This document shows positions 4,051 to 40,468 of a stretch of 64,000 nucleotides of DNA, piece after piece. How positions within the stretch are numbered: the stretch's first letter is position 1; the number at the start of each line of letters is the position of its first letter. The stretch spans positions 36,830,001-36,894,000 of the forward strand of contig CM119371.1 of the NCBI GenBank assembly GCA_051294905.1, in the 5' to 3' direction. The notes under the pieces were generated by a model. It made no database searches. It worked only from the letters and a program-made list of their open reading frames with translations, and was not told where the DNA came from. Made by a program: the position numbers and the translations under genes. The DNA is from Botryllus schlosseri (Eukaryota).

Positions 4051-4429
4051 AAGCCATAGAAAGATGGTACTTGCACTCTCAATAACATTTGTTTACGCCC
4101 CGTTGACCTACTACAAGAATTAAGCATTTTGAAACACGCGGTCGATTACTGGGTTGCGTAGTCGCTTCATTTGAATTACTGACACATTATAGCTTATTAA
4201 TATGTAAGCGCACAGCACAGCTTAAACACGCCGCTAGCTCAGCAATGCGTGTTTATTCATTTGTCTCCGAGTCCTTTAACAATCTTTCACGCACTTATTT
4301 TAAGAATCACTGCCCGAGAAGATTAACCTTACGTTGGATAAATTGCCTTGCTTAGTGCAGTGGCTAAGCGTTCCTCATGCTTTCTGCCCTGATATGTGTA
4401 TCAATGAATTTAGCTCTACTGATTTTTTA

Positions 4430-4531
4430 TATTGCATTTAATAATAACATCAAATGAACTGGGCAATGACGCTGTCGCGCTTGCAGCTGTTCGGTAGCTG
4501 AAGGCTGGTTCCAGAGACTTGGCAGGTATCA
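4430..4531 (-). other. Putative terminal exon (TGA stop plus 3'UTR with ATTAAA) of the defensin-like gene
   Basis: Acceptor TCTTTCAG|TGA in phase 0, with ATTAAA near 4437-4442. An alternative is unspliced read-through to a TGA near 4958. Confidence 0.45.
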
Positions 4532-4589
4532 CTGAAAGACACAGATGTTTCCAAATATGAATCAATTACATATCTAATGCGTCACGACA

Positions 4590-4905
4590 TCAATGGCAGT
4601 GGTTCGAATCCCGGTTCGGACCTACTTCTATGTGTCGGTGGTTTATCTGGGCTCCTCGTCGCTGACCCCGCTGCATATGCGGTGTCGCATGGAAAGCCCA
4701 GATGAATCAAATAAAGTCTAGCTTTCAGAATCGATTTCAATAGACTCTGGCGAGGGAGATGTGAGTGAATTCGTGACCGCAAGTCGTCCGCAAAGCGTAC
4801 CGAAAGCAAAGACATACAGACATTACAATATTCGTGATCTGGCGCAAATGACCGTATCGGCGATAAGCGCCAAAGCTTTTCAATAAAAACATACAAACAA
4901 ACATA
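4590..4905 (+). mobile_element. 5'-truncated tRNA-derived SINE, family B
   Basis: B box GGTTCGAATCCC. The 3' tail CAAATGACC..GGCGATAAGCGCCAA..AATAAAA(CAAA)n is shared with 5721-5820. Confidence 0.65.
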
Positions 4906-5005
4906 TAAAATGAGTACTGTATACGCCACGTCATCACAAGCAAATTAAAAAGACGCATCATGCAGTAACCTGCTCATCCGTACGGATTAAACTATGACCT
5001 CTCAC

Positions 5006-5073
5006 CTGTTCCTGGTCTTCGGCAATCGTATCCGGACTTTTGCAGCAACTCTCTCCAACTGGACATTCACGGC
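5006..5073 (-). CDS. Exon 3 (GRECPVGESCCKSPDTIAEDQEQ) of the beta-defensin-like gene
   Basis: Polypyrimidine tract plus TACAG|GC acceptor in matching phase 1. Supplies Cys4 and the terminal CC. Donor CAG|GTGAGA. Confidence 0.75.
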
Positions 5074-5720
5074 CTGTATCAAATAAAAAAAGAAATTCGT
5101 TGCACAACCGGTTGTACAACATTCTGCTTCAAAGCATTAAGAAGAAGCACTGGCAAATATAAGCTTGCGGAAACTGGAGGTTCACTCCGCTTGTTATAGT
5201 TAGTAATGACCGTGACCTCGGGCGGCGGTGAGTTTTTATTCTAGATTCAATATGTAGTGAGTTATGCCTTCTGGAGATCTTGGGCATTTGACATGCGTTA
5301 CACCTGATTTCTGATTCAGGTTTAAAGCTACAACGAAACTTATATGGTCATGAGATTGGGATTGTGCCATACACTGATCACTCTCGTATCTCATTTGCAA
5401 TATACCAGCTACAATATGCCTATATAATTGGAAGGGATTCGAATGCAATATGCGTATTAATGACAACATGCTGCGCTAATCGCATGCAAAATATAGGGAT
5501 GTGGAGTTGGAGTCAGAGCTTCGTTGAACCTTCCTTATTGATACACCCGGTGGAGTCCCTGGAATTGTAGTATGACGAGACATCATACTAATTTGAGTAG
5601 GAGCATGGGTTTGTTGCGATGATTCGACTTCCACTCCAAATACTTTATCATAGAACTAAATTTTACATTAAAGTACCGGTGTAGTTGAAGAGATTATCAA
5701 GCTTTTTACGTCGTCAGGCA

Positions 5721-5820
5721 CCGTAAAAGACCGTTGACATTACTGAAATTGATGTACTGGTTGCAAATGACCTTATAGGCGATAAGCGCCAATGTTGTGC
5801 GAATAAAACAAACAAACAAA
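5721..5820 (+). mobile_element. 100-bp 3' retroposon fragment with TSD
   Basis: Flanked by CGTCGTCAGGCA (5709-5720, 5821-5832), with an (AAAC)n tail. Confidence 0.8.
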
Positions 5821-6057
5821 CGTCGTCAGGCATTCAAACTCTCAATTTCCTTTTCCGAGCACATTGTTTTCCAAATGCAAAAAGTAAGTTAATTCACTTG
5901 GTGACAATAACAACTCAAATATAATAGACATATGGTTTTCTTGGCAGACTTATAAGGATGATTATATCGCAGTTGAGGTTGCGTAAAAGAATACTAGTAG
6001 TCGGAGTTGGAGTCGGTGGTAAAGTGAGACGACAGAGCGGCCCAGCTCGAAACTTAC

Positions 6058-6079
6058 CAGCGCCGCCTATCCATCCTTC
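6058..6079 (-). CDS. Exon 2, 3' part (EGWIGGA), on the far side of E1
   Basis: Removing E1 and one TSD gives a 90-nt phase1-phase1 exon ending at a consensus donor CTG|GTAAGT. Confidence 0.8.
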
Positions 6080-8291
6080 CACGCAAGTAGTGTTGTCATC
6101 CTTTTTTCGTGCAGGCCAATCAAATTTCGCCACGTCGCCCTAATTGCCACGCCTATATGACGCCCATTGCCGCACCTATAGGACACCCCTTGCCACATCA
6201 TCCACCCATTGCCGCACCTATAGGACACCCCTTGTCACATCATCCACAATTGCTGCGTCAAAACTTACCTTGGCTAGAATCGACAGATTTTCTATTATGT
6301 GTATTTAGGAATATGTATTTAAATTCCTATTCAGATTATACATAAATGCGAAAACTATGATGTCTATGTAAGGCTATATTCTCCGGATAATATTATTAAT
6401 ATCAAAAATCTACACATCATCACTAATTACTTAATATAAAATGCGATTTTGAGCGCTGCGACTTGATAATATGAGCCCCTACGCTTCTGATGCATGATTT
6501 TTTGTGATAAGGACCTAGGTAACATTCAGAGTCTGCAACGATTGTTTGGATATACATTATACCAATACCCCACTAAACTATAGGCGGTTATATTACTCTA
6601 TTGCTCAGAGATAACTCATCCGTCCATATTTTTAAACTCGATTTTATGTATACAAGTTACTGTCTCTCTGCAGCCTCCCCATTTTACGACTTATTTTCAT
6701 TAGACGCAGGCAAGCGATTCTCCAGTTCGGAGCTACGGAAACAAATCACTCGCATGTGCGCGTTCCGAATAGTCTTGTAGAATTTTCTAAAGTCGTAACA
6801 GCTTAGTAGCATATACGCGAATCCCAAGGTGAAAATAATCGAACGAACTATAGCCGTAGGCGTGCGATTCGCAGGGCTTTATTTATACAAACTCATTCGA
6901 TGCCTGTACGCGAACCCCAGCGTTAAAACGATTAGGTCTAATTAACACGTTCTGAAGCCGAAAATTTAGTCAACATCATTGAGATAGCCATGATTTGAAG
7001 ATGGTGATCGAGTGTGACAATAGCACTCGCCAAGGTTAGACAAACATAACCTTAAACTACTCTCTACTTCACAAAATATAAAGTTATAAAAGTAAGCAGA
7101 TTTTGTCGATATTGCTTTGTGATGATTTTGATGTTGTTCCATAGCGATTGGGAAGATAGGACTCGTAATTCCTTAACTAACTACATAATCCCTAGTAACG
7201 TAGTCAGACGCATAACGGAATTTACGCAAATCGATATTGCTCTGCGATAATTTTGACCACTATGTTTTGATAATAACTTGCTTCCGAGAAATAGATAACA
7301 TTCATTATACGTTAGATGATACTTTTCCTTTATATTCTATTATGTGTATTTAGGGCTAATGCGACATCACTATGTTGGCGACAGGCCTGATTTGAACGCG
7401 CTAATTTTGCAAATTAAACTTATCACCCAACACGAACACTCAATGAAGAGCACCCTAGAGCACCCACATAAATGCTCCACAATTTGTGACGTATAATATA
7501 CTGAGCATATAATAAGCTGACAAAACTGATACTTGAGTACTCCGAAATGTACAAGTACTTTACCTTTACACGACGTTTTTGTAAAATGAATACTAATGGT
7601 ACGCGAATGATCATAGACTAAGCTTGCTTTCAGAGTTGGAAACTAAATGCATATGAAAATTTACCTATGTTTTCCCCTCACGCATCAGATGTAGGCCTAC
7701 TCAAGTGTTTATGAGGCGGCGAATAGTTCGGAGGTTGTTGGTATGCAAGGACGTCACATAGAATTGTGGAGTTTTCTGTAAACTATATTCCAGTGATCTA
7801 TTTTCAATCACTATACTTTTATTAATCTAAACTAAGTACTGTTAGTAGGCAAATCCTAGAAAAGTATCCTCTGATAAAAGTAGGAGTAATTCGTTATCTG
7901 TGAAATAAATAGATAGCGCGCAATATGAGCGGTGTTACGATGACTGACAAATACTTTGAATTAATGCATAGAAGTAGCGATTTCGAACTACGTAAAAAGT
8001 TAGTCGAGCTCACGCATTTTCCATTTTCAAAAGTCGACGTTTTTTGTAAAATGAATACTTATTTTATTAAAAATTAAAAAATAAAGAAAAGAGCGAAAAA
8101 TTACATTTTATCCTGGAACGCAACAAGAAAAATCGTATGAATTTTAACTACTTATTCATGACATACTAATAACTACTTGTACACTTTTTCACATTTTATA
8201 ACACTTTAGTAGTACTTAACAGTTTCAGTTTTAAATAAAATTCGGAATCTAAACTAATCAAAAAAATTCGGTAACCAATTTCGCGTAGGCT

Positions 8292-8621
8292 ATGCATACA
8301 AATGAGGAAAGTTACATCACGGAAGCGAAAGAGGCCAGAGATCTATTCACTCGATACAGCCATCACGCAAAGATCAGTGTCGTGTTCATATGTCAAAATT
8401 TGTTCTATAGGGGTCAAGGCTTTCGGGATATGACCTTGAGCGCGAGCTATATCGTGATATTTAAAAATCCCCGCGATGCGAGTCAAATCAGTTTTCTTTC
8501 ACGTCAAATGTTCCCGGATAAAGCCGGATTCCTTACGGAGGCTTATAAAAAGGCAACTCGAAAACCGTTCTCGTACATACTGGTTGACGTGACGCAAGAG
8601 ACAGACGAAAATTATCGTTGA
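8292..8621 (+). pseudogene. C-terminal fragment of a Polinton/Maverick A32/FtsK-like DNA packaging ATPase
   Basis: The motif string LFTRYSHHAKISVVFICQNLF, SASYIVIFKNPRDASQI..LSRQMFP, EAYKKAT.KPFSYILVD is typical of Polinton ATPases. Walker A and B are absent. The ORF stops at the junction (~8618) with the module shared with E2. Confidence 0.85.
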
Positions 8622-9854
8622 TTTCGTGAGCTTTACTTAAGTTTTATAAATTGACGAAAAAGTAGTCATTTCCGAGTAAGTAAAACGTTCGTATTGTAGG
8701 TTCATTTCTGCTTAATACTATAATTATCATGGAGTTGAAGCAGTCCAATATCAAAAACACCCGAAAGTATTTGTTGCATATAGCTAAAAACCTAATTGAG
8801 TACTCTGAAGAAGTACAAGTGGCACAGTTTGTGGTATTTCTATGACATCGAAATTTAGCTAACCAGAACTTATACTTGAGTACTCCGAAATGTACAAGTA
8901 CTTTACCTTTACACGACGTTTCTGTAAAATGAATACTGATTTTATTAAAAAATAAAAAAGCACGAAAAATTACATTTTATCCCAAACCATCAGAATACTA
9001 AAGTAGCTTATCGCGTATATGGACCTAATACTAAAGTGTTTATGATTTCAGTTCGCTTCAACTTCATGACATTTTCAGTATTAAACAGAAGTATAAGCCT
9101 AGAATGCTAACTTTCTTCGTAAATTGCTACTTCTGCCTTAATTTAACGGATTTATCCGAGATCATTGCTTTACTTAATCTCTCCAAAATGTGCATTATAC
9201 TAGTACGTCACCATCGAATCCCTCTGGCTATAACTACTCGATAGTATAATTGAGCCAAATACTCGAGTACTAATTTTAAAGTAGCTTAGGTATCTAAATG
9301 AACCGACGGTCAGTAAACCATTTCGAAGTGCAAGTACAGGAATATCATAGTTCTTGAACCGTGCTCAATGCTCAATAGACCATTTTTGCTATTTTTCATC
9401 GCCATAAGTCATTCTGGACCGCGTAAACGCATTGTACGTTATAGATGAAACTTATGCAAATCCCCGGAACGCAACAAGAAAAATCGTATAAATTTGTAAA
9501 CTACTTATTCATGACATAATAATAATTCTACTTGTACACATTTTCACATTTTATAACACTTCAAGTAGTACTTGAAAGTTTTGTCAAGTTAACAGGTTAA
9601 AAACTTATACTTGAGCACTACGAAATGTACAAGTACTTTACCTTTACACGACGTTTTGTAAAATGAATACTAATTAAAAAATAAAAAATAAAAAAGAGCG
9701 AAAAATTACATGTTATCCCGGAACGCAACAAGAAAAAATCGTAGGAATTTGTAAACTACTTATTCGGTAAACTACTCTTTACTTCACAAAACAAAGTTAC
9801 AAAAGTAAGCAGATTTATATGAAAACCCGTTAAATAGAAGTAAAAGTAATAACA

Positions 9855-10400
9855 ATGCATCATACCAAATTTGATCGCAATTTCATGATGCAATACCTTT
9901 AAAACTAACGCAGTTCTCTATACACTTTTGCGTAAATCTGTGTTTCGCTAGCGTAGCACGTACCTATACATAGTAAGCTTCAATAACGGAATTACCATGC
10001 TAATAATCAAATCCCCACCCTGAAACTCGGTACGCGGTTGTAAGACATTATGAAAATACAACATACCAAATTTCATCAGACATTTCATGATGTAACACCT
10101 TTAAAACCAACGCAGTTCTATACCGACTTTTGGCTAAATCTGTTATCCATAGCGCAGCACGTACCTATACATAGTCAACTTTAAAACGGAATTACCATGT
10201 TAATAATCGGCTCCCCACCTTGAAACTCGGTACGCAGTTGTAAGACATTATGACAATGTAGCATGTCAAATTTTGTTACGCATTTCATGATTGAACAACT
10301 TGAAAACTAACGCAGTTCTATACCGACATTTGCGTGAAACTGTTTTGCGGGAGCTTAGCGCATACCTATGCGTAGTCAACTTTAATGACGGAATTACAGA
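9855..10400 (+). repeat. ~200-bp unit tandem array (~2.7 copies), mirrored at ~15800-16347
   Basis: TTTCATGAT recurs at 9881, 10083 and 10283, along with AACGGAATTAC and TGAAACTCGGTACGC. Confidence 0.85.
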
Positions 10401-10604
10401 TGTAATTAGGTTTCAACACTTTTACAACGATTCTTCTTGCTTCCTATAACATCGCACTCGAAGCCCTCGTTATTAGGCTATGATCTCAGCCTGAGCTATG
10501 TCTTGAAGCCTACGGGACTTTGCAAATTGTTTCGATTTATTCTATACCCGTTTTAATTTAAGGAAGCCCATTTCACTCAATGTATCGATGCCTACAGTAT
10601 AGAG

Positions 10605-11926
10605 CAGGGGTTCTCAACCCGCGGCCCGCGGGCCGCATGCGGCCCGCAGACGATTCTTTTGCGGCCCGCGACATATTTCAATATAATCTCTACTGGCCCC
10701 ATATTGTTATGGAAGACCGATGAGTCACATTTGTCGAAGAACAGTTGTTGTAACAAAGCCTAGAAGCTTGAAATGATAGCACGATAGTTTCATCTGGAGT
10801 TATACCTATCAAACGTTGCTAGCTTGGTTTCAAGCCCAGCAATCCATATTTCGAATGATTTTTAAAATTTCCGCCGACGTGACAGACGCATTGTTCAAAA
10901 TGGCTTGGAATATCGCTAAACCCAATAATCTGCTAGAGAAGGTATGAGGTATGACTTCAATAACGCTTTAACGTACTGTGCGAATATTCGCTGTTTCCGG
11001 AATTTAGCAGCAAGTCCTATCACCTGACAAATTTCGAAGCTACAGTTGTCACCAGAAGAGTAACAGCGATAAGGTATGACTTGAATAAAGCTTTAACGTA
11101 CTGTGCGAATATTCGGTGTTTCCGGAACTTAGTAGCAAGTCCTGTCATCTGACAAATTTCGAAGCTACAGTTGTCACCAGAAGAGTAACAGCGATCTCAG
11201 TCGATCTTTTATCGCATGTTCTGTAACACGTTGCCACGTAGACTACGTTAGCCGAGCATTGGACCTATCCATCGATGCACACAGTGCAGACACATTGCAT
11301 AGCTAATTATCCAGGTGCTTTTTATCGGAGTGGGCATGGGCATATTTCCAGAGGAAATGCTGACGGGACAAACGTGGGAAGGGGACCAGGACATCAATTT
11401 GACAAAGCTGACTTCTGTAACTATTGGTGTAGGGCTCCAGTCATGGAAGGAAAGGAGAAGAGTTGATTGATTTGCTCGGAAATGACCCCTAACGTCTCGA
11501 TTCTTCTCATATCATATCTGAGAGCTCAAGATGATAATGGCCTCAGTAACGAAAAAGTCACCGTAATTTTATACTTGCTCGCTAACGCATTGAAACAGAA
11601 AGTTCGGTTCTCTGGTGGTGGAAAGGTTTGATGGTTGCATATACTATATACCGACATGGCAATGGATGGAATGTACGCTCCATGAAGGGATTTACTTGCG
11701 CCACTTGAAGATCGATATTCTCACAAAAACAGCAACTGCAAACTTACGAACGCTCTCCATTAATGCTTTAGAATGCATAAGAATGTACTAAATGCCCGAA
11801 TAAGACTGATAAATAGGCCTAAATTTAATAGTAGCCCACAAATACATGGTGATAATGTTCTGCGGCCCGCGGCGTCTTTTAGTGTGAAAATGCGGCCCGT
11901 TATACGAGGGAAGTTGAGAACCCCTG
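10605..11926 (+). mobile_element. hAT (Charlie-like) deletion derivative inserted in the left arm of E1
   Basis: TIR CAGGGGTTCTCAAC / GTTGAGAACCCCTG with a perfect 8-bp TSD GTATAGAG. The empty site is present in the right arm (~15598-15605). Subterminal GCGGCCCGC repeats and an internal ~125-bp tandem duplication. Confidence 0.93.
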
Positions 11927-13254
11927 GTATAGAGTATACTCTACAAAATTTTCTGTTTAATTCTCCCTATGTTAATTTACCATAAGACAGACAATTTGAC
12001 TCCTAAAGTCCGAAATACTTGTTCGCTTGAGCTAAGCCGCAGCGCCCGGAGTGGAATTTTATAGTTCTTGTAAAAAGTTGTTTATACACAATATATGTTT
12101 AAGGTAAGTCCTACGCATTCATGATTTCGTCCGAGTTTGTATTTTAGTAATATATACTAATACCGCGTTTGTAACTTGTGCAAGTAGGCCTACAGGAATA
12201 TCATAGGTAAAGTCTCTGTCTTGCATTTAGTTGCCGGCTCTGAAAGCAAGCAAAGTTTGTGGTATTTGAGCAACAGCGAAATTTGTACACTTCACGCGGG
12301 GCCTACGATACTTACGGCCTAATATGGCACATTACACTTGCTGGATATAAGAGGCCGACACTCCCAACCAGACATCACGACTGACTCAATGATTGCTTGC
12401 GATCTCACTTCTCGATACCAGACGCCTCGCCATACAAGTCTAATAAAGTATTATAACAGACAAAATTAGTTCTTTCAGATGAAACAACCCAATTAAGAGC
12501 CAAGTGATAGCGTCGCAATGTATTTAATCGTTCGGGTAGACTTGAATCGTGATCCGGATCTCGTAACATAGTAAAATCGAGGTATGTAGTTTAATTACTC
12601 ACTCACTACTCTATATGTTGGTGGTGGTCATACCCTGCAAACTTTTTTGCTGCGAACGTAGTGTTTCACCTTACATCAGTTGGTTCAATGTATGTACCGG
12701 GTTGTGAAAACTGTCGCTGTTTTGAGTATGTGTCACAATCAATACTAAATACGAGAATTCGTTACTCGTCGAAACGCCGCAGTCAGACATCGTTAACAGC
12801 GAGACGGAGACTATCAAAATATCGAAAGAAGACGTCTATTCTTTTCTGAAATAATCAAGGTTTTATCAGGACTTCCCTTCATATAAACTCCAGCAGAATC
12901 ACTAATAACCTCTCAAGTTTACTCAATTTACTCTAATTTGATACTCGTGTACCAAATCCCTATTTTCCGCAAGTAGGATAGAGGCTATCGCTCGATACTC
13001 AACGATTCGTAATTTTGCTGGAATTTTGGTACAATTAGGGATTGAAAAGTGACTGATACAAGTGGTTATGTTTGTAGGATATTTACACTTCTACTAAGCG
13101 GTTTTTCAGGAGAAACTACCTACTTTTAGGACTTTATATTTTAAAGTAGTTTAAGGTTACGGTTGTATCACCTTGAGAAATGCTATGATCAAAAACTGCT
13201 TTTGCTAAACTCTTACACATTCACTAAACTTCTACACTGAATCTTGAGCTCCAG

Positions 13255-14285
13255 GGCATTGTGATTATGCAGCATACCAAATTGCGTCACACATTTACAC
13301 TTCATGATGGAATAACTGTAAAACTAACCCAGTTCTATAGCAACTTTTGCCTACATCTGTTTTCGGTAGCGTGTACATGTACATATACATAGTCAGCTTT
13401 AATAACAGAATTACCATGCTAATATGTAACTCCTCACCTTGAAACTTGGTACGTAGTTGTAGGACATTGTTATTATGCAGCATACGAAATTTTCTTACGC
13501 ATTTCATAATGGAACAACTTTAAAACTAACGCGGCTCTATATCGACATTTTGCGTGCATCTGTTTTGTGGGGGCGTATAGTACGTACCCATACATAGCCA
13601 ACTTTAATAACGGAATTACCATGCTTAACATTGAATCCCAACTCTAAACTTGATACGTAGTTGTAGGACATTATGGCAATGCACCATGCTAGATTTCATC
13701 CCACATCTAATGATGGAACACCTTTGAAACTATCGCAGTCGAATACCGACTTTTACGCATATCTGTTTTTCGTGAACACAGCATATGCCAATACATAGTC
13801 AATTTTAATAACAGAATTAGTATGCTAAACATTAAATTCTCACCTTGAACGTTGGTACGCAGTTGTAGGACATAATAAGAATGCACCATACCAAATTTCG
13901 TCAGACATTTCATGATGTAACACCTTTAAAACCAACGCAGTTCTATACAGACTTTTGGCTAAGTCTGTTTTTCCGTAGCGTATAGCACGTACCTATGCAT
14001 AGTCAACTTTAATAACGGAATTACCATGTTAATAATCGACTCCCAACCTTGAAACTCGCTACACCGTTGTAAGACATTATGACAATGCACCATGTCAAAT
14101 TTTGTTACGCATTTCATGATTGAACAACTTCAAAACTAATCCAGTTCCATGCCGACTTTTGCGGGGGCGTAGCACGTATATGCATACTCAACTTTAATAA
14201 CGGAATTACCGAGCTTAACATTGAATGCGCAACTTGAAGATTGGTTCACAGGTGTAGGACATTATGACAATGGAACATACCACTG
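13255..14285 (+). repeat. ~200-bp unit tandem array (~5 diverged copies)
   Basis: Same unit, with a period of about 200-204 bp. Confidence 0.85.
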
Positions 14286-14929
14286 CGCTAACTTTCAGAA
14301 TTGTTAAGTATAGTACTCGCACTTTGTGAGAATACCCAAGTAGCTTCTTTGCCTACATGCACCAAATACTCTCAAGTCCTTATGATATTGGAGTACATCA
14401 ACTTCATGATAGCTAGAGTATTGAACAGAAATAGACCCAGAGTACTAACGTTTTACTTACTCGGAAATGACTACTTCTACCTTATTTTAAAGGATACCTC
14501 GTTCGAAGCGAAATTTATGTGGTTTTGGATAATATCCAAGATGTAGGCTCACTTTGAAGGGTACTTCCTAAAACTCAAATATTGCGCAAAAGTACAATTA
14601 GGGATCTAAAAGTAACTAATATAGATGGGTATTTTCGTAGATTACTTACCCTCTACTCAAGAGGTTTTTCAGGTGGAACTACCTACTTTTATGACTGTGT
14701 ATGTCAAAGTAGTTTGAGCTTACGTTTATATCACCTTGACAAGTGACATTATCACACATGAAAATGATATTATCGCGTAATACCAGAAGTTAACACACGT
14801 CAATGTGTTTCGGAAGTCACTAGAAATTGGTTACTAAGAAAAGTATTTGTGTACACAATAGCGGAGAGAATATTTAAAATGTAGTAAGCAGGCCGATGGG
14901 TATTCATTGAGTTGTATAAGCATAAAAAA

Positions 14930-14999
14930 CATTCCCGCGCGCGTCTTAGGATTAGGTGGTAGGGTTAGGCAGGGTTGGGTTTAGGAGCGCGCGGGAATG
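14930..14999. other. Symmetry-axis hairpin of E1: 13-bp GC stem plus 44-nt telomere-like G-rich loop
   Basis: CATTCCCGCGCGC / GTCTTAGGATTAGGTGGTAGGGTTAGGCAGGGTTGGGTTTAGGA / GCGCGCGGGAATG. Confidence 0.85.
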
Positions 15000-17580
15000 A
15001 ACGATTAAATACATTGCGACGATGTCACTTGGCTCTTAATTGGGTTGTTTCATCTGAAAGAACTAATTTTGTCTGTTATAATACTTTATTAGACTTGTAT
15101 GGCGAGGCGTCTGGTATCGAGAAGTGAGATCGCAAGCAATCATTGAGTCAGTCGTGATGTCTGGTTGGGAGTGTCGGCCTCTTATATCCAGCAAGTGTAA
15201 TGTGCCATATTAGGCCGTAAGTATCGTAGGCCCCGCGTGAAGTGTACAAATTTCGCTGTTGCTCAAATACCACAAACTTTGCTTGCTTTCAGAGCCGGCA
15301 ACTAAATGCAAGACAGAGACTTTACCTATGATATTCCTGTAGGCCTACTTGCACAAGTTACAAACGCGGTATTAGTATATATTACTAAAATACAAACTCG
15401 GACGAAATCATGAATGCGTAGGACTTACCTTAAACATATATTGTGTATAAACAACTTTTTACAAGAACTATAAAATTCCACTCCGGGCGCTGCGGCTTAG
15501 CTCAAGCGAACAAGTATTTCGGACTTTAGGAGTCAAATTGTCTGTCTTATGGTAAATTAACATAGGGAGAATTAAACAGAAAATTTTTTAGAGTATACTC
15601 TATACTGTAGGCATCGATACATTGAGTGAAATGGGCTTCCTTAAATTAAAACGGGTATAGAATAAATCGAAACAATTTGCAAAGTCCCGTAGGCTTCAAG
15701 ACATAGCTCAGGCTGAGATCATAGCCTAATAACGAGGGCTTCGAGTGCGATGTTATAGGAAGCAAGAAGAATCGTTGTAAAAGTGTTGAAACCTAATTAC
15801 ATCTGTAATTCCGTCATTAAAGTTGACTACGCATAGGTATGCGCTAAGCTCCCGCAAAACAGTTTCACGCAAATGTCGGTATAGAACTGCGTTAGTTTTC
15901 AAGTTGTTCAATCATGAAATGCGTAACAAAATTTAACATGCTACATTGTCATAATGTCTTACAACTGCGTACCGACTTTCAAGGTGGGGAGCCGATTATT
16001 AACATGGTAATTCCGTTTTAAAGTTGACTATGTATAGGTACGTGCTGCGCTATGGATAACAGATTTAGCCAAAAGTCGGTATAGAACTGCGTTGGTTTTA
16101 AAGGTGTTACATCATGAAATGTCTGATGAAATTTGGTATGTTGTATTTTCATAATGTCCTACAACCGCGTACCGAGTTTCAGGGTGGGGATTTGATTATT
16201 AGCATGGTAATTCCGTTATTGAAGCTTACTATGTATAGGTACGTGCTACGCTAGCGAAACACAGATTTACGCAAAAGTGTATAGAGAACTGCGTTAGTTT
16301 TAAAGGTATTGCATCATGAAATTGCGATCAAATTTGGTATGATGCATTGTTATTACTTTTACTTCTATTTAACGGGTTTTCATATAAATCTGCTTACTTT
16401 TGTAACTTTGTTTTGTGAAGTAAAGAGTAGTTTACCGAATAAGTAGTTTACAAATTCCTACGATTTTTTCTTGTTGCGTTCCGGGATAACATGTAATTTT
16501 TCGCTCTTTTTTATTTTTTATTTTTTAATTAGTATTCATTTTACAAAACGTCGTGTAAAGGTAAAGTACTTGTACATTTCGTAGTGCTCAAGTATAAGTT
16601 TTTAACCTGTTAACTTGACAAAACTTTCAAGTACTACTTGAAGTGTTATAAAATGTGAAAATGTGTACAAGTAGAATTATTATTATGTCATGAATAAGTA
16701 GTTTACAAATTTATACGATTTTTCTTGTTGCGTTCCGGGGATTTGCATAAGTTTCATCTATAACGTACAATGCGTTTACGCGGTCCAGAATGACTTATGG
16801 CGATGAAAAATAGCAAAAATGGTCTATTGAGCATTGAGCACGGTTCAAGAACTATGATATTCCTGTACTTGCACTTCGAAATGGTTTACTGACCGTCGGT
16901 TCATTTAGATACCTAAGCTACTTTAAAATTAGTACTCGAGTATTTGGCTCAATTATACTATCGAGTAGTTATAGCCAGAGGGATTCGATGGTGACGTACT
17001 AGTATAATGCACATTTTGGAGAGATTAAGTAAAGCAATGATCTCGGATAAATCCGTTAAATTAAGGCAGAAGTAGCAATTTACGAAGAAAGTTAGCATTC
17101 TAGGCTTATACTTCTGTTTAATACTGAAAATGTCATGAAGTTGAAGCGAACTGAAATCATAAACACTTTAGTATTAGGTCCATATACGCGATAAGCTACT
17201 TTAGTATTCTGATGGTTTGGGATAAAATGTAATTTTTCGTGCTTTTTTATTTTTTAATAAAATCAGTATTCATTTTACAGAAACGTCGTGTAAAGGTAAA
17301 GTACTTGTACATTTCGGAGTACTCAAGTATAAGTTCTGGTTAGCTAAATTTCGATGTCATAGAAATACCACAAACTGTGCCACTTGTACTTCTTCAGAGT
17401 ACTCAATTAGGTTTTTAGCTATATGCAACAAATACTTTCGGGTGTTTTTGATATTGGACTGCTTCAACTCCATGATAATTATAGTATTAAGCAGAAATGA
17501 ACCTACAATACGAACGTTTTACTTACTCGGAAATGACTACTTTTACGTCAATTTATAAAACTTAAGTAAAGCTCACGAAA

Positions 17581-17910
17581 TCAACGATAATTTTCGTCTG
17601 TCTCTTGCGTCACGTCAACCAGTATGTACGAGAACGGTTTTCGAGTTGCCTTTTTATAAGCCTCCGTAAGGAATCCGGCTTTATCCGGGAACATTTGACG
17701 TGAAAGAAAACTGATTTGACTCGCATCGCGGGGATTTTTAAATATCACGATATAGCTCGCGCTCAAGGTCATATCCCGAAAGCCTTGACCCCTATAGAAC
17801 AAATTTTGACATATGAACACGACACTGATCTTTGCGTGATGGCTGTATCGAGTGAATAGATCTCTGGCCTCTTTCGCTTCCGTGATGTAACTTTCCTCAT
17901 TTGTATGCAT
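17581..17910 (-). pseudogene. Mirror copy of the Polinton packaging ATPase fragment
   Basis: Translation is identical to 8292-8621, in the right arm of E1. Confidence 0.85.
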
Positions 17911-20074
17911 AGCCTACGCGAAATTGGTTACCGAATTTTTTTGATTAGTTTAGATTCCGAATTTTATTTAAAACTGAAACTGTTAAGTACTACTAAAGTG
18001 TTATAAAATGTGAAAAAGTGTACAAGTAGTTATTAGTATGTCATGAATAAGTAGTTAAAATTCATACGATTTTTCTTGTTGCGTTCCAGGATAAAATGTA
18101 ATTTTTCGCTCTTTTCTTTATTTTTTAATTTTTAATAAAATAAGTATTCATTTTACAAAAAACGTCGACTTTTGAAAATGGAAAATGCGTGAGCTCGACT
18201 AACTTTTTACGTAGTTCGAAATCGCTACTTCTATGCATTAATTCAAAGTATTTGTCAGTCATCGTAACACCGCTCATATTGCGCGCTATCTATTTATTTC
18301 ACAGATAACGAATTACTCCTACTTTTATCAGAGGATACTTTTCTAGGATTTGCCTACTAACAGTACTTAGTTTAGATTAATAAAAGTATAGTGATTGAAA
18401 ATAGATCACTGGAATATAGTTTACAGAAAACTCCACAATTCTATGTGACGTCCTTGCATACCAACAACCTCCGAACTATTCGCCGCCTCATAAACACTTG
18501 AGTAGGCCTACATCTGATGCGTGAGGGGAAAACATAGGTAAATTTTCATATGCATTTAGTTTCCAACTCTGAAAGCAAGCTTAGTCTATGATCATTCGCG
18601 TACCATTAGTATTCATTTTACAAAAACGTCGTGTAAAGGTAAAGTACTTGTACATTTCGGAGTACTCAAGTATCAGTTTTGTCAGCTTATTATATGCTCA
18701 GTATATTATACGTCACAAATTGTGGAGCATTTATGTGGGTGCTCTAGGGTGCTCTTCATTGAGTGTTCGTGTTGGGTGATAAGTTTAATTTGCAAAATTA
18801 GCGCGTTCAAATCAGGCCTGTCGCCAACATAGTGATGTCGCATTAGCCCTAAATACACATAATAGAATATAAAGGAAAAGTATCACCTAACGTATAATGA
18901 ATGTTATCTATTTCTCGGAAGCAAGTTATTATCAAAACATAGTGGTCAAAATTATCGCAGAGCAATATCGATTTGCGTAAATTCCGTTATGCGTCTGACT
19001 ACGTTACTAGGGATCATGTAGTTAGTTAAGGAATTACGAGTCCTATCTTCCCAATCGCTATGGAACAACATCAAAATCATCACAAAGCAATATCGACAAA
19101 ATCTGCTTACTTTTATAACTTTATATTTTGTGAAGTAGAGAGTAGTTTAAGGTTATGTTTGTCTAACCTTAGCGAGTGCTATTGTCACACTCGATCACCA
19201 TCTTCAAATCATGGCTATCTCAATGATGTTGACTAAATTTTCGGCTTCAGAACGTGTTAATTAGACCTAATCGTTTTAACGCTGGGGTTCGCGTACAGGC
19301 ATCGATAGAGTTTGTATAAATAAAGCCCTGCGAATCGCACGCCTACGGCTATAGTTCGTTCGATTATTTTCACCTTGGGATTCGCGTATATGCTACTAAG
19401 CTGTTACGACTTTAGAAAATTCTACAAGACTATTCGGAACGCGCACATGCGAGTGATTTGTTTCCGTAGCTCCGAACTGGAGAATCGCTTGCCTGCGTCT
19501 AATGAAAATAAGTCGTAAAATGGGGAGGCTGCAGAGAGACAGTAACTTGTATACATAAAATCGAGTTTAAAAATATGGACGGATGAGTTATCTCTGAGCA
19601 ATAGAGTAATATAACCGCCTATAGTTTAGTGGGGTATTGGTATAATGTATATCCAAACAATCGTTGCAGACTCTGAATGTTACCTAGGTCCTTATCACAA
19701 AAAATCATTCATCAGAAGCGTAGGGGCTCATATTATCAAGTCGCAGCGCTCAAAATCGCATTTTATATTAAGTAATTAGTGATGATGTGTAGAATTTTGA
19801 TATTAATAATATTATCCGGAGAATATAGCCTTACATAGACATCATAGTTTTCGCATTTATGTATAATCTGAATAGGAATTTAAATACATAGTCCTAAATA
19901 CACATAATAGAAAATCTGTCGATTCTAGCCAAGGTAAGTTTTGACGCAGCAATTGTGGATGATGTAACAAGGGGTGTCCTATAGGTGCGGCAATGGGCGT
20001 CATATAGGCGTGGCAATTAGGGCGACGTGGCGAAATTTGATTGGCCTGCACGAAAAAAGGATGACAACACTACT

Positions 20075-20142
20075 CACGCACCCGTCGTTAGGGGATTTGC
20101 AGTATCCGTGATTATTTGCCTCGCAATTCGGTACGGCGGACA
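20075..20142 (-). CDS. Exon 2, 5' part (VSAVPNCEANNHGYCKSPNDGCV), interrupted by E1
   Basis: Acceptor TTTTTTCAG|TG. The frame continues up to the TSD (TGCGTG = Cys-Val). Confidence 0.8.
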
Positions 20143-20238
20143 CTGAAAAAACGAATAACAGCAAATATATATCTATATATATGCTTTTTAACCTATACTT
20201 CACGTACGCCATCATGGTTATGGCAGAAATATATTTAC

Positions 20239-20293
20239 CTTGGTTGAATACGATCGATACCACGACGAGAAAGACGAAAATCTTGGAGTTCAT
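20239..20293 (-). CDS. Exon 1 (signal peptide MNSKIFVFLVVVSIVFNQ) of a secreted six-Cys beta-defensin-like peptide gene
   Basis: ATG at 20293, hydrophobic signal peptide, phase-1 donor AAG|GTAAAT, and an upstream TATATAAAG. Confidence 0.8.
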
Positions 20294-20358
20294 GATGATC
20301 AAGCTGTCTCGACTATTTGCTGAATAGAGGTAGAATACAGACGACTGTAAGTCACCAG

Positions 20359-20367
20359 CTTTATATA
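20359..20367 (-). promoter_or_regulatory. TATA box of the defensin-like gene
   Basis: TATATAAAG about 65 nt upstream of the ATG on the same strand. Confidence 0.55.
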
Positions 20368-21655
20368 AAAATCTGCTGTATCAGAAATGGATTGGAAACA
20401 ATGCTGCTGGAAGCCACATGTGCATTGACGCAACTACACTTCTGTGTATCAACGTCTTTTTGCGATAACGAACCGATTGCAACAACACAAGAATGACTCA
20501 AAGAATTCATTGTTTTTTCTAAATTTGTAAGAACTGTATGTTCTTCTTTCCGGTAATCGGTTTGATGTTTGTGGCCAACCTATCGTGAGGTTCTCAGAAA
20601 CGTATCAAGATGACAATGTAACGCTCAATAATAATGTCTATACCCATCAGACCAAGCACCATCATATCAGTTTCGAATTACGTACTATTGCGTAAAAACC
20701 AGTAATTTTGATCCTCTATACCAGACCTGGGCAAAGTGCGGCCGCGAAGCTATTCTGTGCGGCCCGCGAAAGGTATCTTGGAATTCAAAATATAAAACTT
20801 TCTTTTAGAATGACTGAAACCATAGGCTGTATCAGAAGAACAGAGAATTCGTTTAATTTGAAGCCTGTTCATTAATATACCAGGATTACGGTGCCTACCT
20901 GACATGCGTAATCCAGATTCAGAATAACTGCAATGTGGCAAAGTATGAGTATCATATCTATCTCCCAAAAAGGATTAACGGACATGCCCCAAAAAAAAAA
21001 GCCGAAAACAGAAATTCAAAGAAGGTTTAGGTTCATAATTTAGAGCACTATATTCGTATACTGGATTCAGGGGTAAACCCGTTCTTTCAGTTTTTGCCGA
21101 GCATGTCGCCGAGACTAGGGATTTTAATTAAAGTCGGTCTTATGACAAAAACACGAAACACTCGGTCACGGGAGTGCCAAGTTCAGAAAAAAACACAACT
21201 CACCAATACCTGATAATACGAATGACTCTATTGCAGTGCTTTTCAACCTGTGTGACGGTTCGCACTTGTGCGAATGAAAAAAATTGCAGTGCGAATGACG
21301 ATGGTGGTGCGAACGGTGCGAATGAAAATCCCAGATGAGTGCAAATGAGGAAGGTGATACGAATGATGCGAATGAAAATCCCGGATGAGTGCGAATGAAA
21401 ATCGCGAATAATAATTGTTCATTTTTTTGACCTAGAATAATACAAATAAACCTAATAGGAAATTCAAGGGCAGTGTAACTTTTGTTGTTGCGACGCAATT
21501 GTAAAAACTTGTTTAACTTACGACCCACCACTAATCGTAGATTTCACAAGCCATAGTGAAAAATGACGTCAACTTGACTTCCTGCTTTCTTTCGCTAAAC
21601 AATCTTTCGTAATTATTGTTCGATTAGTGCGAGGCACGGGGATAGTAGTAAATAC

Positions 21656-24183: not shown

Positions 24184-25788
24184 TTATATGTCTCTTCCGG
24201 TCAATATAACATAGTCGATTAACGGTTGAATCGTTCTCTGATTAACTATCAGAGAAAATACTGTATAAGGTGTTCGATACTTCTGTACGTCTCTGCTCAG
24301 ATGGGTCCGTTCTACGGAATATTTATTACAGAATAGCACGAAATGGTCCACCGTTTCCGGCACACCACATTCCGCACAGACTCCACTTTCGTGTAAGCCG
24401 AGTTTGTGCAGGTGTTTGTTTAGCCTGCAATGACCGGTGTACAATCGGGTCAAGATCGAATTCTCTCTTCGGTTTCGATTGGTTTGCTTATGAAAAGTTA
24501 CTTGGAGCGACTCCATCTCCTGATTGCCGAGTTCGAGTATTTGTTGAGTGGTATTACGTCGTATGTCCCTGTAATATTCTGCTACGATGGCTTGACATTC
24601 TTTTGCTGTAAGAGGGACCATGTTTGGATGATCGACGGGTTCCCTGGATGCTTCCTTTGCCAAATTATCGGCGGTTTCGTTATATGCAAGTCCTTTGTGT
24701 GCGGGAATCCAAACAAACGTGACTGTTGATCCTCTTGCCGATAAATGGATGGTTTGTAAGTGAATGTCCCTGATTAAGTCATTGTCTTTAGATCGGTTGT
24801 CGATTGCTTTTATTGAGCTACTACTGTCCGAGAAAATTGCTAATTGTATGTTAGGTTCGCAATTGTTACAAGCCCATGCTAGACTGTCTCTGATAGCCGT
24901 CAGCTCCGCCGTAAATATACTCACAAGTCTGTTCAGTGATTTTTTATACGAAAATTCAAAACTGGGTACATAGAATGCTGATCCACATCCTGCGTCAGTT
25001 TTCGAGCCGTCTGTATAAATAGCACAATAGTTTTTGTATCGCTCTACTATTACTTCCCTGCATTCGATATTCATAGCTTGGGGATTATTGAGTTCGCGTA
25101 ATTTCATTTCTAGATCAAGGTCACAAGTGCTATTTACCGACGTCCAAGGGGGAATTTGTGAATATTGTATGCATTCTATTGCTATGTCCTTTAAGCACCC
25201 AACCTTTGAAACCATATTAAAGGTTTCAAATTGTATAGAGTCTGGAAATATTTCGTGCCAAGAGTCCTGGACGATCGAAGTACAGGGGTGATCTCTTTGT
25301 GATCTTATGATACACCGGTAATTTGCACACGCCTGTTTGTAACGCATTTCTACGGGCGGCTCGTTGCAAAGAAATTGTAGTGCATGTATCGGAGTGCTCC
25401 TCATTGCTCCGCTGCAGAGTCTCAACGCGTTATTTTGTAGCGTCTGAAGTCCTTTGGAGACATATTTCGGTGAAGCGAAATATGCTTCGATGCCATATTC
25501 GATGATCGAGCGTATCAGTGCCCTATACAGTACTAACATGCATTCTTTGGAGGCCCCCCATGTAGTTCCACTCAGACAACGAAGAATATTCATCCTGGAT
25601 GTGCATTTTTTGACCACAGATTGTAGGTGTGGTTTATATGAGAGTCTCGAATCAAATATTATGCCGAGATATGTGTATTCTTTTAGGAAGGGTATGGGAT
25701 CACTTCCAGACAAAATCTCAAGGGAAGGTAACTTGCGACGTCTCGTGAACAAAATGGCGGCAGATTTTGCGCTATTTATCTTCATGCC
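24184..25788 (-). pseudogene. LINE ORF2 C-terminal part: RT thumb, RNase H and Zn knuckle
   Basis: Motifs YLGIIFD, IYTDGSK, FTAELTAI, SDSSS, WIPAHKGLAYNETADNLAK and CAECGVPETVDHFVLFC. Same frame as the RT across the single stop (WCLK*GMKIN). Confidence 0.95.
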
Positions 25789-26813
25789 TCATTTCAAGCA
25801 CCAATTTGTGATCGCCGTGAGAGTCGTCTGTGTATCATTGCGTACCGTGTCGATGTTTAGCCCGGACTCGTAAAAACAAATGTCATCAGCGTATATGTTA
25901 AGTTTTGAGGCGATTTTATCAGGAAGGTCGTTCATCATCACAGCGAATAATAATGGCGAGAGAATACTTCCCTGGGCAATTCCATTGTCAGTATGGAAGA
26001 TTTCGGACAGGGTTGTACCCACGCGCACTCGAAATGTTCTCTGTTTCAGGAATGAGTGTATCCATCGTATTGCATTTCCTGAGATACCCATTTTGCGCAA
26101 TTTAAATAAGATAGCTCCTTGCCACGCCATGTCGTAGGCTTTCTCTAAATCGAGGAAGACCGATATTGTGTATCTCTTATTTGCGATAGCTTTGTAGACT
26201 TCGTCGTGTAGCGATAAGATGCAGTCTCGGGTACCGCGTCCTTTTCGAAACCCACTCTGTGCAGGGTGGAGGAGATTGTTACTTTCCAGATACCAAGTCA
26301 ACCGATTGCTAATCATACGCTCAAAGATTTTACATAAATCGCTTGTGAGCGAGATTGGTCTGTAACTGCTAACTTCGGAAGCGGGTTTTGCTTTTTTGTG
26401 AATCGGAACTACCACTGCGTGCTTCCAAGAAGGAGGGCATATGCCATCGCTCCAGGACTTGTTGATTATTCGGAGATATTCAATTGCGGTTCGTTGGGAC
26501 ACGTTTCGCATCATCTGGTGGCATATTCCATCATGGCCGGGCGACGCACCTTTTCTTTGACGGATTACCGTCATCAGTTCGTCCATTGTATACGGCGCGT
26601 TTATTCCAGTGTTCGACCCTATTTCCTGTAACAGCGGGGTCAGCTTATCAGCTTCAAACAAGTTGCGTCTAGTTTGCTCTACTTGTCCAAGGTTTTGGTT
26701 CCCACATACCGATGCGAAGTGCTTTCCAAGTGCGTTTGCTATCTGTTTTTCGTCAGTGAAAACGAGATTGTCGCTTTTCAGCGCAGTAATCACATTCCAG
26801 GATTGACTACCCC
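25789..26813 (-). pseudogene. LINE ORF2 middle part: reverse transcriptase
   Basis: Motifs SPGHDG, YRPISLTS, QSGFR, FLDLEKAYD, GIAQGSILSP and YADD. In frame with the EN part once E2 is removed. Ends at a premature TGA (likely TGG). Confidence 0.95.
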
Positions 26814-28290
26814 AGTAGTGAGGGTTGATCAAATTGGTACGCACCAATCACAGAACGCCACGTCATCCTAATTGCCACGCCTATATGACGCCCATTGTCA
26901 CGCCTACAGGATGCCCATTGCCACGTCACCTACCACTGCCACATCGTGTGTATTTATGAGCAAATTTCATTGTTTTGTGAATTTCAATACCGGTTTTCCA
27001 TGTATATTTAGCAATATGTATTGAATAACTTGAAATGTATCATCACTAATTAATTAATATAAAATGCGATTTTAAGCGCTGCGACTTGAAAATATTAATA
27101 TAATAACTTACTTTTTTGGATATAAATAACATTCAGATTACACATAAATTTCTAAAACTATGACGTCAATAGAATACTATATTTGCCAGATATTCACAGA
27201 TAACACTCATCAACGTTGAACTAGGCGCGGGGTTCTATGATGATATATCAAAATTCTACACATCATCACTAATTAATTAATTCATATAAAATGCGATTTT
27301 GAGCGCAGACAGATCGCGGTTTCGATTGCCGAGGTCTCCGCATTTCATGACCTTATATGAGCGCACACTACAACTGAATTCATTCCAATACCTGCAAATT
27401 TACTTTGCATGTCGAGTATAAGGATAATTTAATCAGCACTAAACGCCAACGGACTAGCCGTAGGCGCACAATTCTCGGCGTTACAATTAAACAAACTTTT
27501 CGCGGCAGGTACGCGATTCCCGACGTTATAATGATAGTGACAAATTAGCCGCATGAAAGCGAGTCTAATGAATATAACGACAGACAACAAGTTAGTTGAA
27601 AAGTAAAACTAATCGTGACCGATGCAAGACGACGTAAAACAGCGCTTTCGCTCGATTCTTGTAGTGACCACATTTCATACGATTCAGTCCTTTTCATGTC
27701 ACTAGAATAAGGGTGATTAAACCAACAGTGAAACGCCGCCGACGTCTTATAACGTAATAATGTAAGCTGCGTCGGGTGCTGCTATAATGTTAGGAGCGAA
27801 TATAGTAGAAAGTCCACGTCTGGACACCTATAAGCAAGTGTGCATACTACCGTAGTAAACGCATAACAGAATTCATGCAAAAGTCTATATTGCTTTGTGA
27901 TGATTTTGATGTTGTTCCATACCGATTGGGAAGATAGGACTCCTAATTTCCTTATCCCGGAACGTAGCAAGAAAAATCGTATAAATTTTGTAAAGTAGAT
28001 AGAAAACTACACTATTCCGATGCAGTAAAGACTCTTACATGCTGGATTTTGTGCAGTATATACTAATTTTACATTGCGGAGTATTCCATAAACGTTAATC
28101 CAGTGATCCTCCTTCTATTTTCAATCACGATCCGCTTATTATTCTAGGCTTCGAACCCCACACCCAGTACATTTTATGGGGATTAATATTTTTAGATTAA
28201 ATATAGCGTATCGAGACTTCGTGAAACTTACTCGGAAATAGTTATTTCTACCCTAATTTAATAGATTTCTCAGATATCGTAGCAACGGAA

Positions 28291-28372
28291 CTGGCTTCAG
28301 CGAGCGGTTAAGGCGTTGGACTTAAGTTTCAATGAACAAGTGTTCACATAGGTTCGAATCCCACACCCACTA
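28291..28372 (+). tRNA. Degenerate tRNA-Leu(UAA)-like sequence inside E2
   Basis: CGAGCGGTTAAGGCG D-arm, TTGGA-CTTAAGT-TTCAA anticodon arm, long variable arm GAACA..TGTTC and GGTTCGAATCC T-arm. The acceptor stem does not pair, so it is probably a pseudogene. Confidence 0.7.
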
Positions 28373-29696
28373 CGTTTACGAGAATTAATATTTTTAGATT
28401 CAAATTTAGCGTATTGAGTACTTTTTCTGCCTTTTTCAGCGCATTAGAGACGTTTACACTATTGATTTCATGAGCTTTACTTAAGTTTTATAAATTAACG
28501 TAAAAGTAGTCATTTCCGAGTAAGTAAAACGTTCGTATTGTAGGTTCATTTCTGCTTAATACTATAATTATCATGGAGTTGAAGCAGTCCAATATCAAAA
28601 ACACCCGAAAGTATTTGTTGCATATAGCTAAAATCCTAATTGAGTACTCTGAAGAAGTACAAGTAGCACAGTTTGTGGTATTTCTATGACATCGAAATTT
28701 AGCTAACCAGAACTTATACTTGAGTAGTCCGAAATGTACAAGTACTTTACCTTTACACGACGTTTCTGTAAAATGAATACTGATTTTATTAAAAATAAAA
28801 AAGCACGAAAAATTACATTTTATCCCAAACCATCAGAATACTAAAGTAGCTTATCGCGTATATGGAGCTAATACTAAAGTGTTTATGATTTCAGTTCGCT
28901 TCAACTTCATGACATTTTCAGTATTAAACAGAAGTATAGGCCTAGAATGCTAACTTTCTTCGTAAATTGCTACTTCTACCTTAATTTAACGGATTTATCT
29001 GAGATCATTGCTTTACTTAATCTCTCCAAAATGTGCATTATACTAGTACGTCACCATCGAATCCCTCTGGCTATAACTACCCGATAGTATAATTGAGCCA
29101 AATACTCGAGTACTAATTTTAAAGTAGCTTAGGTATCTAAATGAACCGACGGTCAGTAAACCATTTCGAAGTGCAAGTACAGGAATATCATAGTTCTTGA
29201 ACCGTGCTCAATGCTCAATAGACCATTTTTGCTATTTTTCATCGCCATAAGTCATTCTGGACCGCGTAAACGCATTGTACGTTATAGATGAAACTTATGC
29301 AAATCCCCGGAACGCAACAAGAAAAATCGTATGAATTTGTAAACTACTTATTCATGACATAATAATAATTCTACTTGTACACATTTTCACATTTTATAAC
29401 ACTTTAAGTAGTACTTGAAAGTTTTGTCAAGTTAACAGGTTAAAAACTTATACTTGAGCACTACGAAATGTACAAGTACTTTACCTTTACACGACGTTTT
29501 GTAAAATGAATACTAATTAAAAAATAAAAAATAAAAAAGAGCGAAAAATTACATGTTATCCCGGAACGCAACAAGAAAAATCGTAGGAATTTGTAAACTA
29601 CTTATTCGGTAAACTACTCTTTCCTTCACAAAACAAAGTTACAAAAGTAAGCAGATTTATATGAAAACCCGTTAAATAGAAGTAAAAGTAATAACA

Positions 29697-40400: not shown

Positions 40401-40468
40401 GCTGAAAAAGGCAGAAAAAGTACTCAATACGCTAAATTTGAATCTAAAAATATTAATTCTCGTAAACG

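Follow-up and report, generated by a model that had tools for sequence, protein, structure and literature searches.

A predicted secreted six-cysteine peptide gene of Botryllus schlosseri, interrupted by a palindromic Polinton-type element

The stretch of Botryllus schlosseri DNA considered here (the window; 64,000 nucleotides, contig CM119371.1, positions 36,830,001 to 36,894,000) holds a minus-strand gene whose second exon is interrupted by E1, a palindromic element of 13,989 bp. This gene, W, is the window gene as it reads once E1 is discounted; A1 to A5 and B denote its close paralogues, and the C-x-C genes form a second subfamily. Removal of E1 and of one copy of the hexamer that flanks it restores four exons, with coding parts of 55, 90 (62+28) and 68 nt and a fourth exon that opens with the stop codon, separated by introns of 96, 984 and 474 nt in phases 1, 1 and 0, all three with GT-AG borders. 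The product has 71 amino acids (aa), with the cysteines spaced C-x7-C-x6-C-x11-C-x5-CC and, in the window allele, nine acidic (D/E) against three basic (K/R) residues. A first-pass annotation made from the sequence alone, which gave a spliced minus-strand gene with a TATA box and phase-compatible GT-AG sites, the 71 aa, the spacing and the residue counts, was exact, and the introns that it predicted are now seen in RNA reads. It was also right that open reading frame (ORF) finders miss the gene; they give a false frame of 126 aa into E1, because the 96-nt intron 1 is in frame and stop-free (window 20000-20380). The N-terminus is hydrophobic, with a hydropathy peak of 3.45 over 12 residues; secretion, which the same annotation had proposed, is predicted, the signal peptide would be cut after residue 21, and Cys1 is the fourth residue past that site.

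W is a real, expressed gene. In RNA run X12, about 6% of which was read, introns 1, 2 and 3 are spliced in 34, 17 and 9 reads with 24, 11 and 7 distinct starts, respectively; some of the intron-1 reads may come from paralogues (90% likeness). Depth over exon 4 dwindles below ~4440. Run X16 has no depth on exons 2b (the 28-nt part of exon 2) to 4, and run X14 has none at the insertion site, its exon-1 reads bearing paralogue-type letters. Introns 2 and 3 also hold a high-copy, abundantly transcribed short repeat (4579-4690, 4830-4880, 5720-5820), whose loose ends we take to resemble the head of a tRNA-derived short interspersed nuclear element.

The ends of E1 (6086 and 20074) each read AGTAGT inward, and alleles with and without the element were found. 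In seventeen X12 reads, the loose ends that stand before 20075, with a median of 75 letters and an agreement of 0.96, run through exon 2b and then exon 3; these reads therefore cross both the empty site and intron 2. In DNA, the empty junction occurs in runs X1 and X3, which come from one sample and whose loose ends of 27 and 24 letters match the left flank. X1 also contains both filled junctions, with 0 differences from the window, at depths of 8.3 and 8.7 as against 6.7-10.2 for the empty form (8-10 and 7 for its filled and empty junction contigs), and the filled left junction is present in X5, from another sample and study. The DNA junction contigs extend 24-30 letters beyond the junction, below our 31-letter bridging rule, whereas the RNA reads pass it. 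Because one DNA sample holds filled and empty junctions, the E1 allele segregates, and a polymorphic null allele of W, which the first-pass annotation had considered possible, is strongly supported. That annotation would have been contradicted by the lack of any transcript, paralogue or empty allele with these splice junctions, and all three were found.

The expressed empty allele is not identical to the window. All X12 reads carry non-window letters at 5027, 5053 and 20108, which X1 has on one haplotype, and six listed coding differences lead to two amino-acid changes, N37R and E56K; as E56 is common to the A copies, the window allele is without sign of decay, in line with the earlier statement that W shows no other lesion. 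The six differences, together with the absence from the assembly of one or more other paralogue-like sequences, would also suit a separate close paralogue that the assembly lacks, the window copy then being a fixed pseudogene. We regard this as very improbable, since the depths of the two forms in X1 are nearly the same (8-11 each) and, over introns as well as exons, the forms join into single contigs of depth 16-19, which is how alleles behave. X1 further differs from the window at full depth at 20200-20204 and 5832-5926, as X3 does in intron 1; either the filled allele has two or more backgrounds, or a bubble was collapsed in the contigs. On the filled chromosome copy, E1 in exon 2 would abolish the W peptide: read-through into E1 would meet a stop after 65 aa and leave three of the native six cysteines, and the consensus donor GTGAGT that the E1 junction creates would, if spliced to exon 3, shift the frame and give an 89-aa product. 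That the insertion allele is no true null, and that cryptic splicing or excision removes E1 so that a functional peptide is still made, is the least probable of the alternatives that we weighed. The new donor might seem to favour it, but it lies in phase 0 against the phase-1 start of exon 3, a script scan of the last 340 nt ahead of the intron-2 donor gave no acceptor with a pyrimidine tract, and four AATAAA sites stand on the sense strand within the first 3 kb of E1.

Table 1. Features of gene W and element E1 (positions in the window).
Feature	Position	Strand	Evidence or remark
TATA box TATATAAA	20360..20367	-	sequence; paralogues with TATA box similarly placed; RNA depth begins ~20335-20350
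Exon 1, coding part (55 nt, ends in phase 1); holds most of predicted signal peptide	20239..20293	-	
Intron 1, 96 nt, GT-AG	20143..20238	-	joint 20142-20239: 34 reads X12, 4 reads X14
Exon 2, 5' part; end of signal peptide, Cys1, Cys2	20081..20142	-	sequence, RNA reads
Target-site duplication, right copy; encodes Cys3-Val	20075..20080	.	hexamer identical to left copy
GTGAGT donor-like site made by E1 junction; out of frame with exon 3	20072..20077	-	use in vivo not observed
E1, 13,989-bp palindromic non-autonomous Polinton/Maverick-type element	6086..20074	.	ends, duplication, arms, family copies
Pox_A32-type packaging ATPase fragment in E1	8289..8621	+	mirror copy 17581-17913, minus
Target-site duplication, left copy	6080..6085	.	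hexamer identical to right copy
Exon 2, 3' part, 28 nt, left hexamer included	6058..6085	-	sequence, RNA reads
Intron 2, 984 nt, phase 1; between Cys3 and Cys4	5074..6057	-	joint: 17 X12 reads
Exon 3; Cys4, Cys5-Cys6, acidic tail	5006..5073	-	sequence, RNA reads
Intron 3, 474 nt, phase 0	4532..5005	-	joint: 9 X12 reads
Exon 4; stop codon 4529-4531, 3' untranslated region, ATTAAA 4437-4442	4420..4531	-	sequence

The outer arms of E1 span ~4.5 kb at 98.8% identity, with 13 mismatches in 4400 bases outside a 42-bp terminal indel, and the inner arms 607 bp. When its left end was used as query, 738 candidates came up and 40 of them were scored; among those listed are at least 14 pairs that face inward, lie 10-17 kb apart and have 99% identity. 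The claim that the insertion is recent is supported only indirectly, by the few differences between the arms and the 99% likeness of the family copies; E1 is likely young, and it is left undated because the arms of a palindrome may homogenise. Terminal inverted repeats that start with AG and a 6-bp target-site duplication, which we take to be the defining features of Polintons, are both present, and E1 is accordingly classed as a non-autonomous Polinton derivative. No polymerase or integrase ORF was found among its stop-to-stop frames, the longest of which have 110 aa, so that E1 likely owes its insertion to an autonomous Polinton whose integrase acted in trans. The only coding remnant identified is the ATPase fragment, one of these longest frames, which alone gave no Pfam match and has 12 homologues at E<=1e-3, nine of them with PF04665.

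E1 has company. A second palindrome of 15 kb (window 26814-42027) belongs to the E1 family, covers 55% of E1 at >=90% identity, has a 6-bp duplication and sits in a long interspersed nuclear element, of which ORFs for an endonuclease (42023-43162) and for reverse transcriptase and RNase H (24184-26847) remain on either side. A third of 13.4 kb, with AGTAGT ends and a 6-bp duplication, lies at C1:36752352-36765732, 1.5 kb upstream of paralogue A1, and is assigned to a different family because it does not match E1 at >=90%. Three palindromic elements thus stand within 120 kb. In the open-access text that was searched, no literature on palindromic Polinton satellites was found.

W belongs to a tandem cluster. 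When the genome was searched with its 5' part, by DNA, protein or pattern, seven places matched, W included, all of them on contig C1 within 100 kb; an eighth match on contig C3 (E 2.2) was dropped as noise. Six of them are intact close paralogues, namely the A copies, five in number and nearly identical (0-3 coding differences), and B, which is inverted, and all of these keep the intron positions, the phases and the TATA box of W. A pattern and gene-model scan of 464 kb revealed two more intact genes (C1:36733544, minus; C1:36736369, plus), the unexpected C-x-C subfamily, to which one 5' fragment and one orphan 3' fragment also belong (region C1:36728250-36771330). Their spacing is C-x1-C-x6-C-x15-C-x6-CC; they share the 55-nt phase-1 first exon, the phase-1 second intron and the acidic tail, and their mature parts align to W, A and B at 93.6% over 40 columns, above 60/60 shuffles with fixed cysteines. 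In total, the cluster contains nine homologues with complete coding exons (W, five A, B, two C-x-C) and two fragments. Loose ends at 20114 in X3 and X12 show yet another exon 2 of paralogue type; its 18-letter motif does not occur in the assembly, which suggests presence/absence variation.

The ratio of non-synonymous to synonymous divergence (dN/dS) of W is roughly 0.24/0.50 against A4 and 0.32/0.67 against B. Counted roughly over at most 71 codons, dN rises from 0.02-0.09 in the signal to 0.36-0.46 in the mature part, where dS is 0.44-0.91. A conserved signal with a diverged mature part is typical of defence-peptide families.

For the fold of the W product, a useful reference is the vertebrate beta-defensin motif C-X4-8-C-X3-5-C-X9-13-C-X4-7-C-C (PMC515299). 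Four of the five intervals of W fit it, and Cys2-Cys3, with six residues, is one too long; because this interval lies outside the consensus, W is filed as beta-defensin-like and not as a member. Beta and big defensins have a phase-1 intron 5' of the cysteine domain (PMC7203481), and W likewise has a signal peptide and a phase-1 intron just 5' of its cysteine-rich region, a weak indication since the arrangement is common among secreted genes. The likeness to beta-defensins claimed by the first-pass annotation is therefore plausible, whereas its likeness to big defensins is not supported, as W has neither a prodomain nor a hydrophobic N-terminal domain.

Further comparative material comes from rusticalins, whose reported occurrence is limited to tunicates, lancelets, a coral and a placozoan (PMC6339383). 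The assembly searched comprises 496 Mb, with large contigs up to at least C16; its 18S sequence looks ascidian, and a search for mitochondrial COX1 gave no match. A rusticalin-like cluster on contig C6 (13.29-13.42 Mb) holds 12 cysteine-repeat exons and three weak M15 peptidase matches, and in one stretch of it several repeat pairs stand in tandem, perhaps as peptidase-less genes. The 12 repeats read C-x6-C-x6/7-C-x8-C-x7/8-CC and share with W the G-x-C, the C-x-x-(G/S)-aromatic-x-x-G and the terminal CC; in the only one of these genes that was inspected, a short phase-1 intron precedes Cys1, which is codon 25, as in W. Aligned to the W family over 33-39 columns, the repeats beat 59/60 (local) and 60/60 (global) shuffles with fixed cysteines. 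A structural model of one repeat (predicted local distance difference test, pLDDT, 83.7) matched 15 chains, with Z from 2.0 to 4.3, most of which are beta-defensins, crotamine, defensin-like peptides and a tick inhibitor. We consider a defensin-type fold for the W family probable, in which three disulfides would close a beta-defensin-like core of ~39 residues.

Four of the nine acidic residues of W lie in the tail after the CC, and such a tail is present in all five representative members compared (2-6 D/E). The core of the expressed empty allele has five K/R and four D/E residues and, through N37R and E56K, a net charge of +1, that of paralogue B three K/R and one D/E; net charges of the cores are -2 for filled W, +1 for empty W, 0 for A4, +2 for B, and +1 and -1 for genes C1 and C2 of the C-x-C subfamily. 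The description of the peptide as anionic was therefore correct in its count, but the argument built on it, that W may be a protease inhibitor or signalling peptide instead of a cationic antimicrobial, was overstated. Near-neutral cores speak against a membrane-lytic peptide of strong positive charge but do not count against a defence role: the St-CRPs of an ascidian are neutral and still show moderate activity against bacteria (PMC13208793), and the precursor from which botryllin is released carries its propeptide on the C-terminal side (PMC9966394). The acidic tail of W is likely a neutralising or solubilising C-terminal piece. The core, near neutral and with a Trp that does not vary, would have a microbial surface or an enzyme as its target, and charge alone would not make it lyse membranes. 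The conserved signal and the divergent mature part, as well as the tandem expansion and the varying copy number, suit a family of immune effectors, and host defence is, judged from sequence features, the most likely function of W. Taken together, we favour, with somewhat better than even confidence, the view that W is an expressed gene for a predicted-secreted six-cysteine peptide, likely a host-defence effector with beta-defensin fold, whose production E1 in exon 2 would abolish and for which intact alleles exist elsewhere.

Several observations weigh against this view. The fold of W is deduced by comparison; exon 2 modelled alone gave an uninformative pLDDT of 51, and neither exon matches any Pfam defensin family. 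Intron 2, spliced in the reads, splits the cysteine domain, unlike in beta-defensins and rusticalin repeats. One of the two rusticalin repeat types scored no better than shuffles, hhalign gave the W family against the repeats a local probability of 9%, single sequences on the rusticalin profile (hidden Markov model) were equalled by 44-175 of 500 shuffles with fixed cysteines, and all fold matches of the rusticalin control model stay at Z <=4.3. The cores, at -2 to +2, are near neutral and lack the cationic character of beta-defensins. As to the gene itself, the W exons are covered in one of the three RNA runs examined (X12), and no read from the filled allele was seen, so that its fate is deduced from the sequence.

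The strongest competitor in profile comparison is the epidermal growth factor (EGF) domain, whose profile outscores rusticalin: set against 21 EGF repeats from the same genome, the family reaches 93% in hhalign (19 columns), more than 60/60 shuffles, on the EGF profile 0/500 shuffles score as high for A4, A5 and B and 24/500 for W, the best Pfam match of exon 2 is EGF_Teneurin (E 0.005-0.006, below the cut-off), and the first Atlas matches are EGF-like at 0.86, which serves as a lead only. The core could accordingly be a remodelled EGF module that kept EGF cysteines 2, 3, 5 and 6, lost 1 and 4 and gained the CC, in a secreted signalling ligand. Such a history would require the loss of two non-partner cysteines, the gain of two and two insertions; the EGF set had been chosen as the best Pfam match and is a deeper profile (effective number of sequences 5.8 versus 2.4), it also matches the rusticalin repeats (48%), which model as defensin folds, and the homologous C-x-C subfamily lacks the GHG motif and reaches 1.5% against EGF. 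We therefore think that an EGF origin of the core is unlikely, and the signalling-ligand reading as a whole a shade less likely still. Another possibility shares the null allele and the beta-defensin-like fold and differs in function, making W a secreted inhibitor of a protease (a carboxypeptidase) or a regulator whose acidic tail engages the enzyme. It draws on the near-neutral core and conserved tail motif of the W family and on the rusticalin repeats, which resemble a tick carboxypeptidase inhibitor (PMC6339383), a role of this kind having been proposed for the rusticalin N-domain; our control model matched the tick inhibitor at Z 2.2. W is, however, a single domain and not double-headed, and PF10468 gave nothing over the cut-off in the genome and no match at the cluster, its three sub-threshold matches being unrelated. 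The fast divergence of the mature part fits an inhibitor without favouring it, and we give this reading a minor share, slightly above that of the EGF-derived ligand.

The family is without a detected relative outside this genome. A word-index search with exon 1, intron 1 and exon 2a gave no candidate among proteins of 40-128 aa, a sequence search of the PDB gave 0 matches, and all Atlas matches stayed below 0.9. HMMER with the exon-2 profile against 1.84 billion representatives gave two matches at E<=1e-3, a fasciclin-containing and a Sushi repeat protein, which were rejected as summed repeat matches. As a rusticalin repeat of this genome is likewise without a database homologue, the blank searches partly reflect poor coverage of this animal. 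No description of the W family was found in the open-access text that was searched; gene lists in supplements could include these genes under locus ids. The main text of PMC13635237 contains neither 'defensin' nor 'rusticalin'.

A transposon knockout within a redundant multigene cluster is in itself ordinary. Since W is one gene of such a cluster, its knockout may be buffered; the paralogues may make up for the lost peptide, and for this reason the null allele could drift. Of wider interest is that coding exons are broken up by giant palindromic Polinton satellites, which remain polymorphic, and that a segregating null provides a ready genotype for a test of function in a clonal animal. More speculatively, and in our view rather doubtfully, tunicates may carry a stand-alone trans-defensin cluster in which duplication gave beta-type (C-x7-C) and alpha-type (C-x-C) frames independently of mammals, and whose repertoire varies between colonies by copy number and Polinton-satellite knockouts; if this is true, such knockouts are natural null alleles for testing function.

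Among known elements, Polintons/Mavericks share with E1 the AG-terminal inverted repeats, the 6-bp duplication and the A32-type ATPase, of which E1 keeps a remnant, whereas E1 is a palindrome over nearly its whole length and has no polymerase or integrase ORF. On the side of the peptide, teneurin/tenascin-type EGF repeats (PF23106, PF07974) have in common with A, B and W the local motif N-x-H-G-x-C-x6-C-x-x-G-W; the W family lacks two of the EGF cysteines and adds the CC, the motif is absent from the C-x-C subfamily, and of the EGF signature (six cysteines, C4-x-C5, C5-x8-C6) only four positions map onto W. Rusticalins (PMC6339383) resemble W in plan. W is likewise (by prediction) secreted, with six cysteines ending in CC, G-x-C at Cys2, Cys3-x-x-(G/S)-aromatic-x-x-G, a short signal exon and a phase-1 intron, and it comes from the same animal group. 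It differs in having one domain in place of two repeats, an intron inside this domain, an acidic tail and a spacing of 7-6-11-5 as against 6-6/7-8-7/8, and the profile similarity is weak; where rusticalins continue into a C-terminal M15 peptidase, the stop codon of W follows the tail, and PF13539 matches occur on contigs C6 and C7 only, none at W.

With vertebrate beta-defensins, panusins and non-canonical big defensins, W shares the signal peptide, the single six-cysteine domain with four of five intervals, the phase-1 intron 5' of the domain, the tandem cluster and the divergent mature parts. It departs from vertebrate beta-defensins, whose six-cysteine motif lies in one exon, by the split domain, the Cys2-Cys3 interval of 6 (consensus 3-5), the near-neutral core and the acidic C-terminal tail, and it has no Pfam or PDB sequence match. 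Big defensins of amphioxus, molluscs and horseshoe crab resemble W in a cysteine array like that of beta-defensins, in tandem duplication and in presence/absence variation, and differ by their prodomain, dibasic site and hydrophobic N-terminal domain, which W lacks; they are reported to be apparently absent from Urochordata, and presence/absence variation has been reported for those of bivalves (PMC7203481). The C-x-C subfamily recalls mammalian alpha-defensins by its C-x1-C start, its C-x6-CC end and its duplication link to a beta-like paralogue. Set against the motif C-X1-C-X3-4-C-X9-C-X6-10-C-C, its pattern of 1-6-15-6-CC fits in the first, fourth and last intervals and misfits in the two middle ones (6 and 15 versus 3-4 and 9), and it is without the long N-terminal propiece of alpha-defensins; the likeness would be convergent. 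Turgencins and St-CRPs (PMC7024374, PMC13208793), finally, are likewise six-cysteine peptides from a colonial ascidian with three disulfides, as we infer for W, but differ in length and in their cysteine patterns, which have either no adjacent cysteines or the order CC-C-C-CC.

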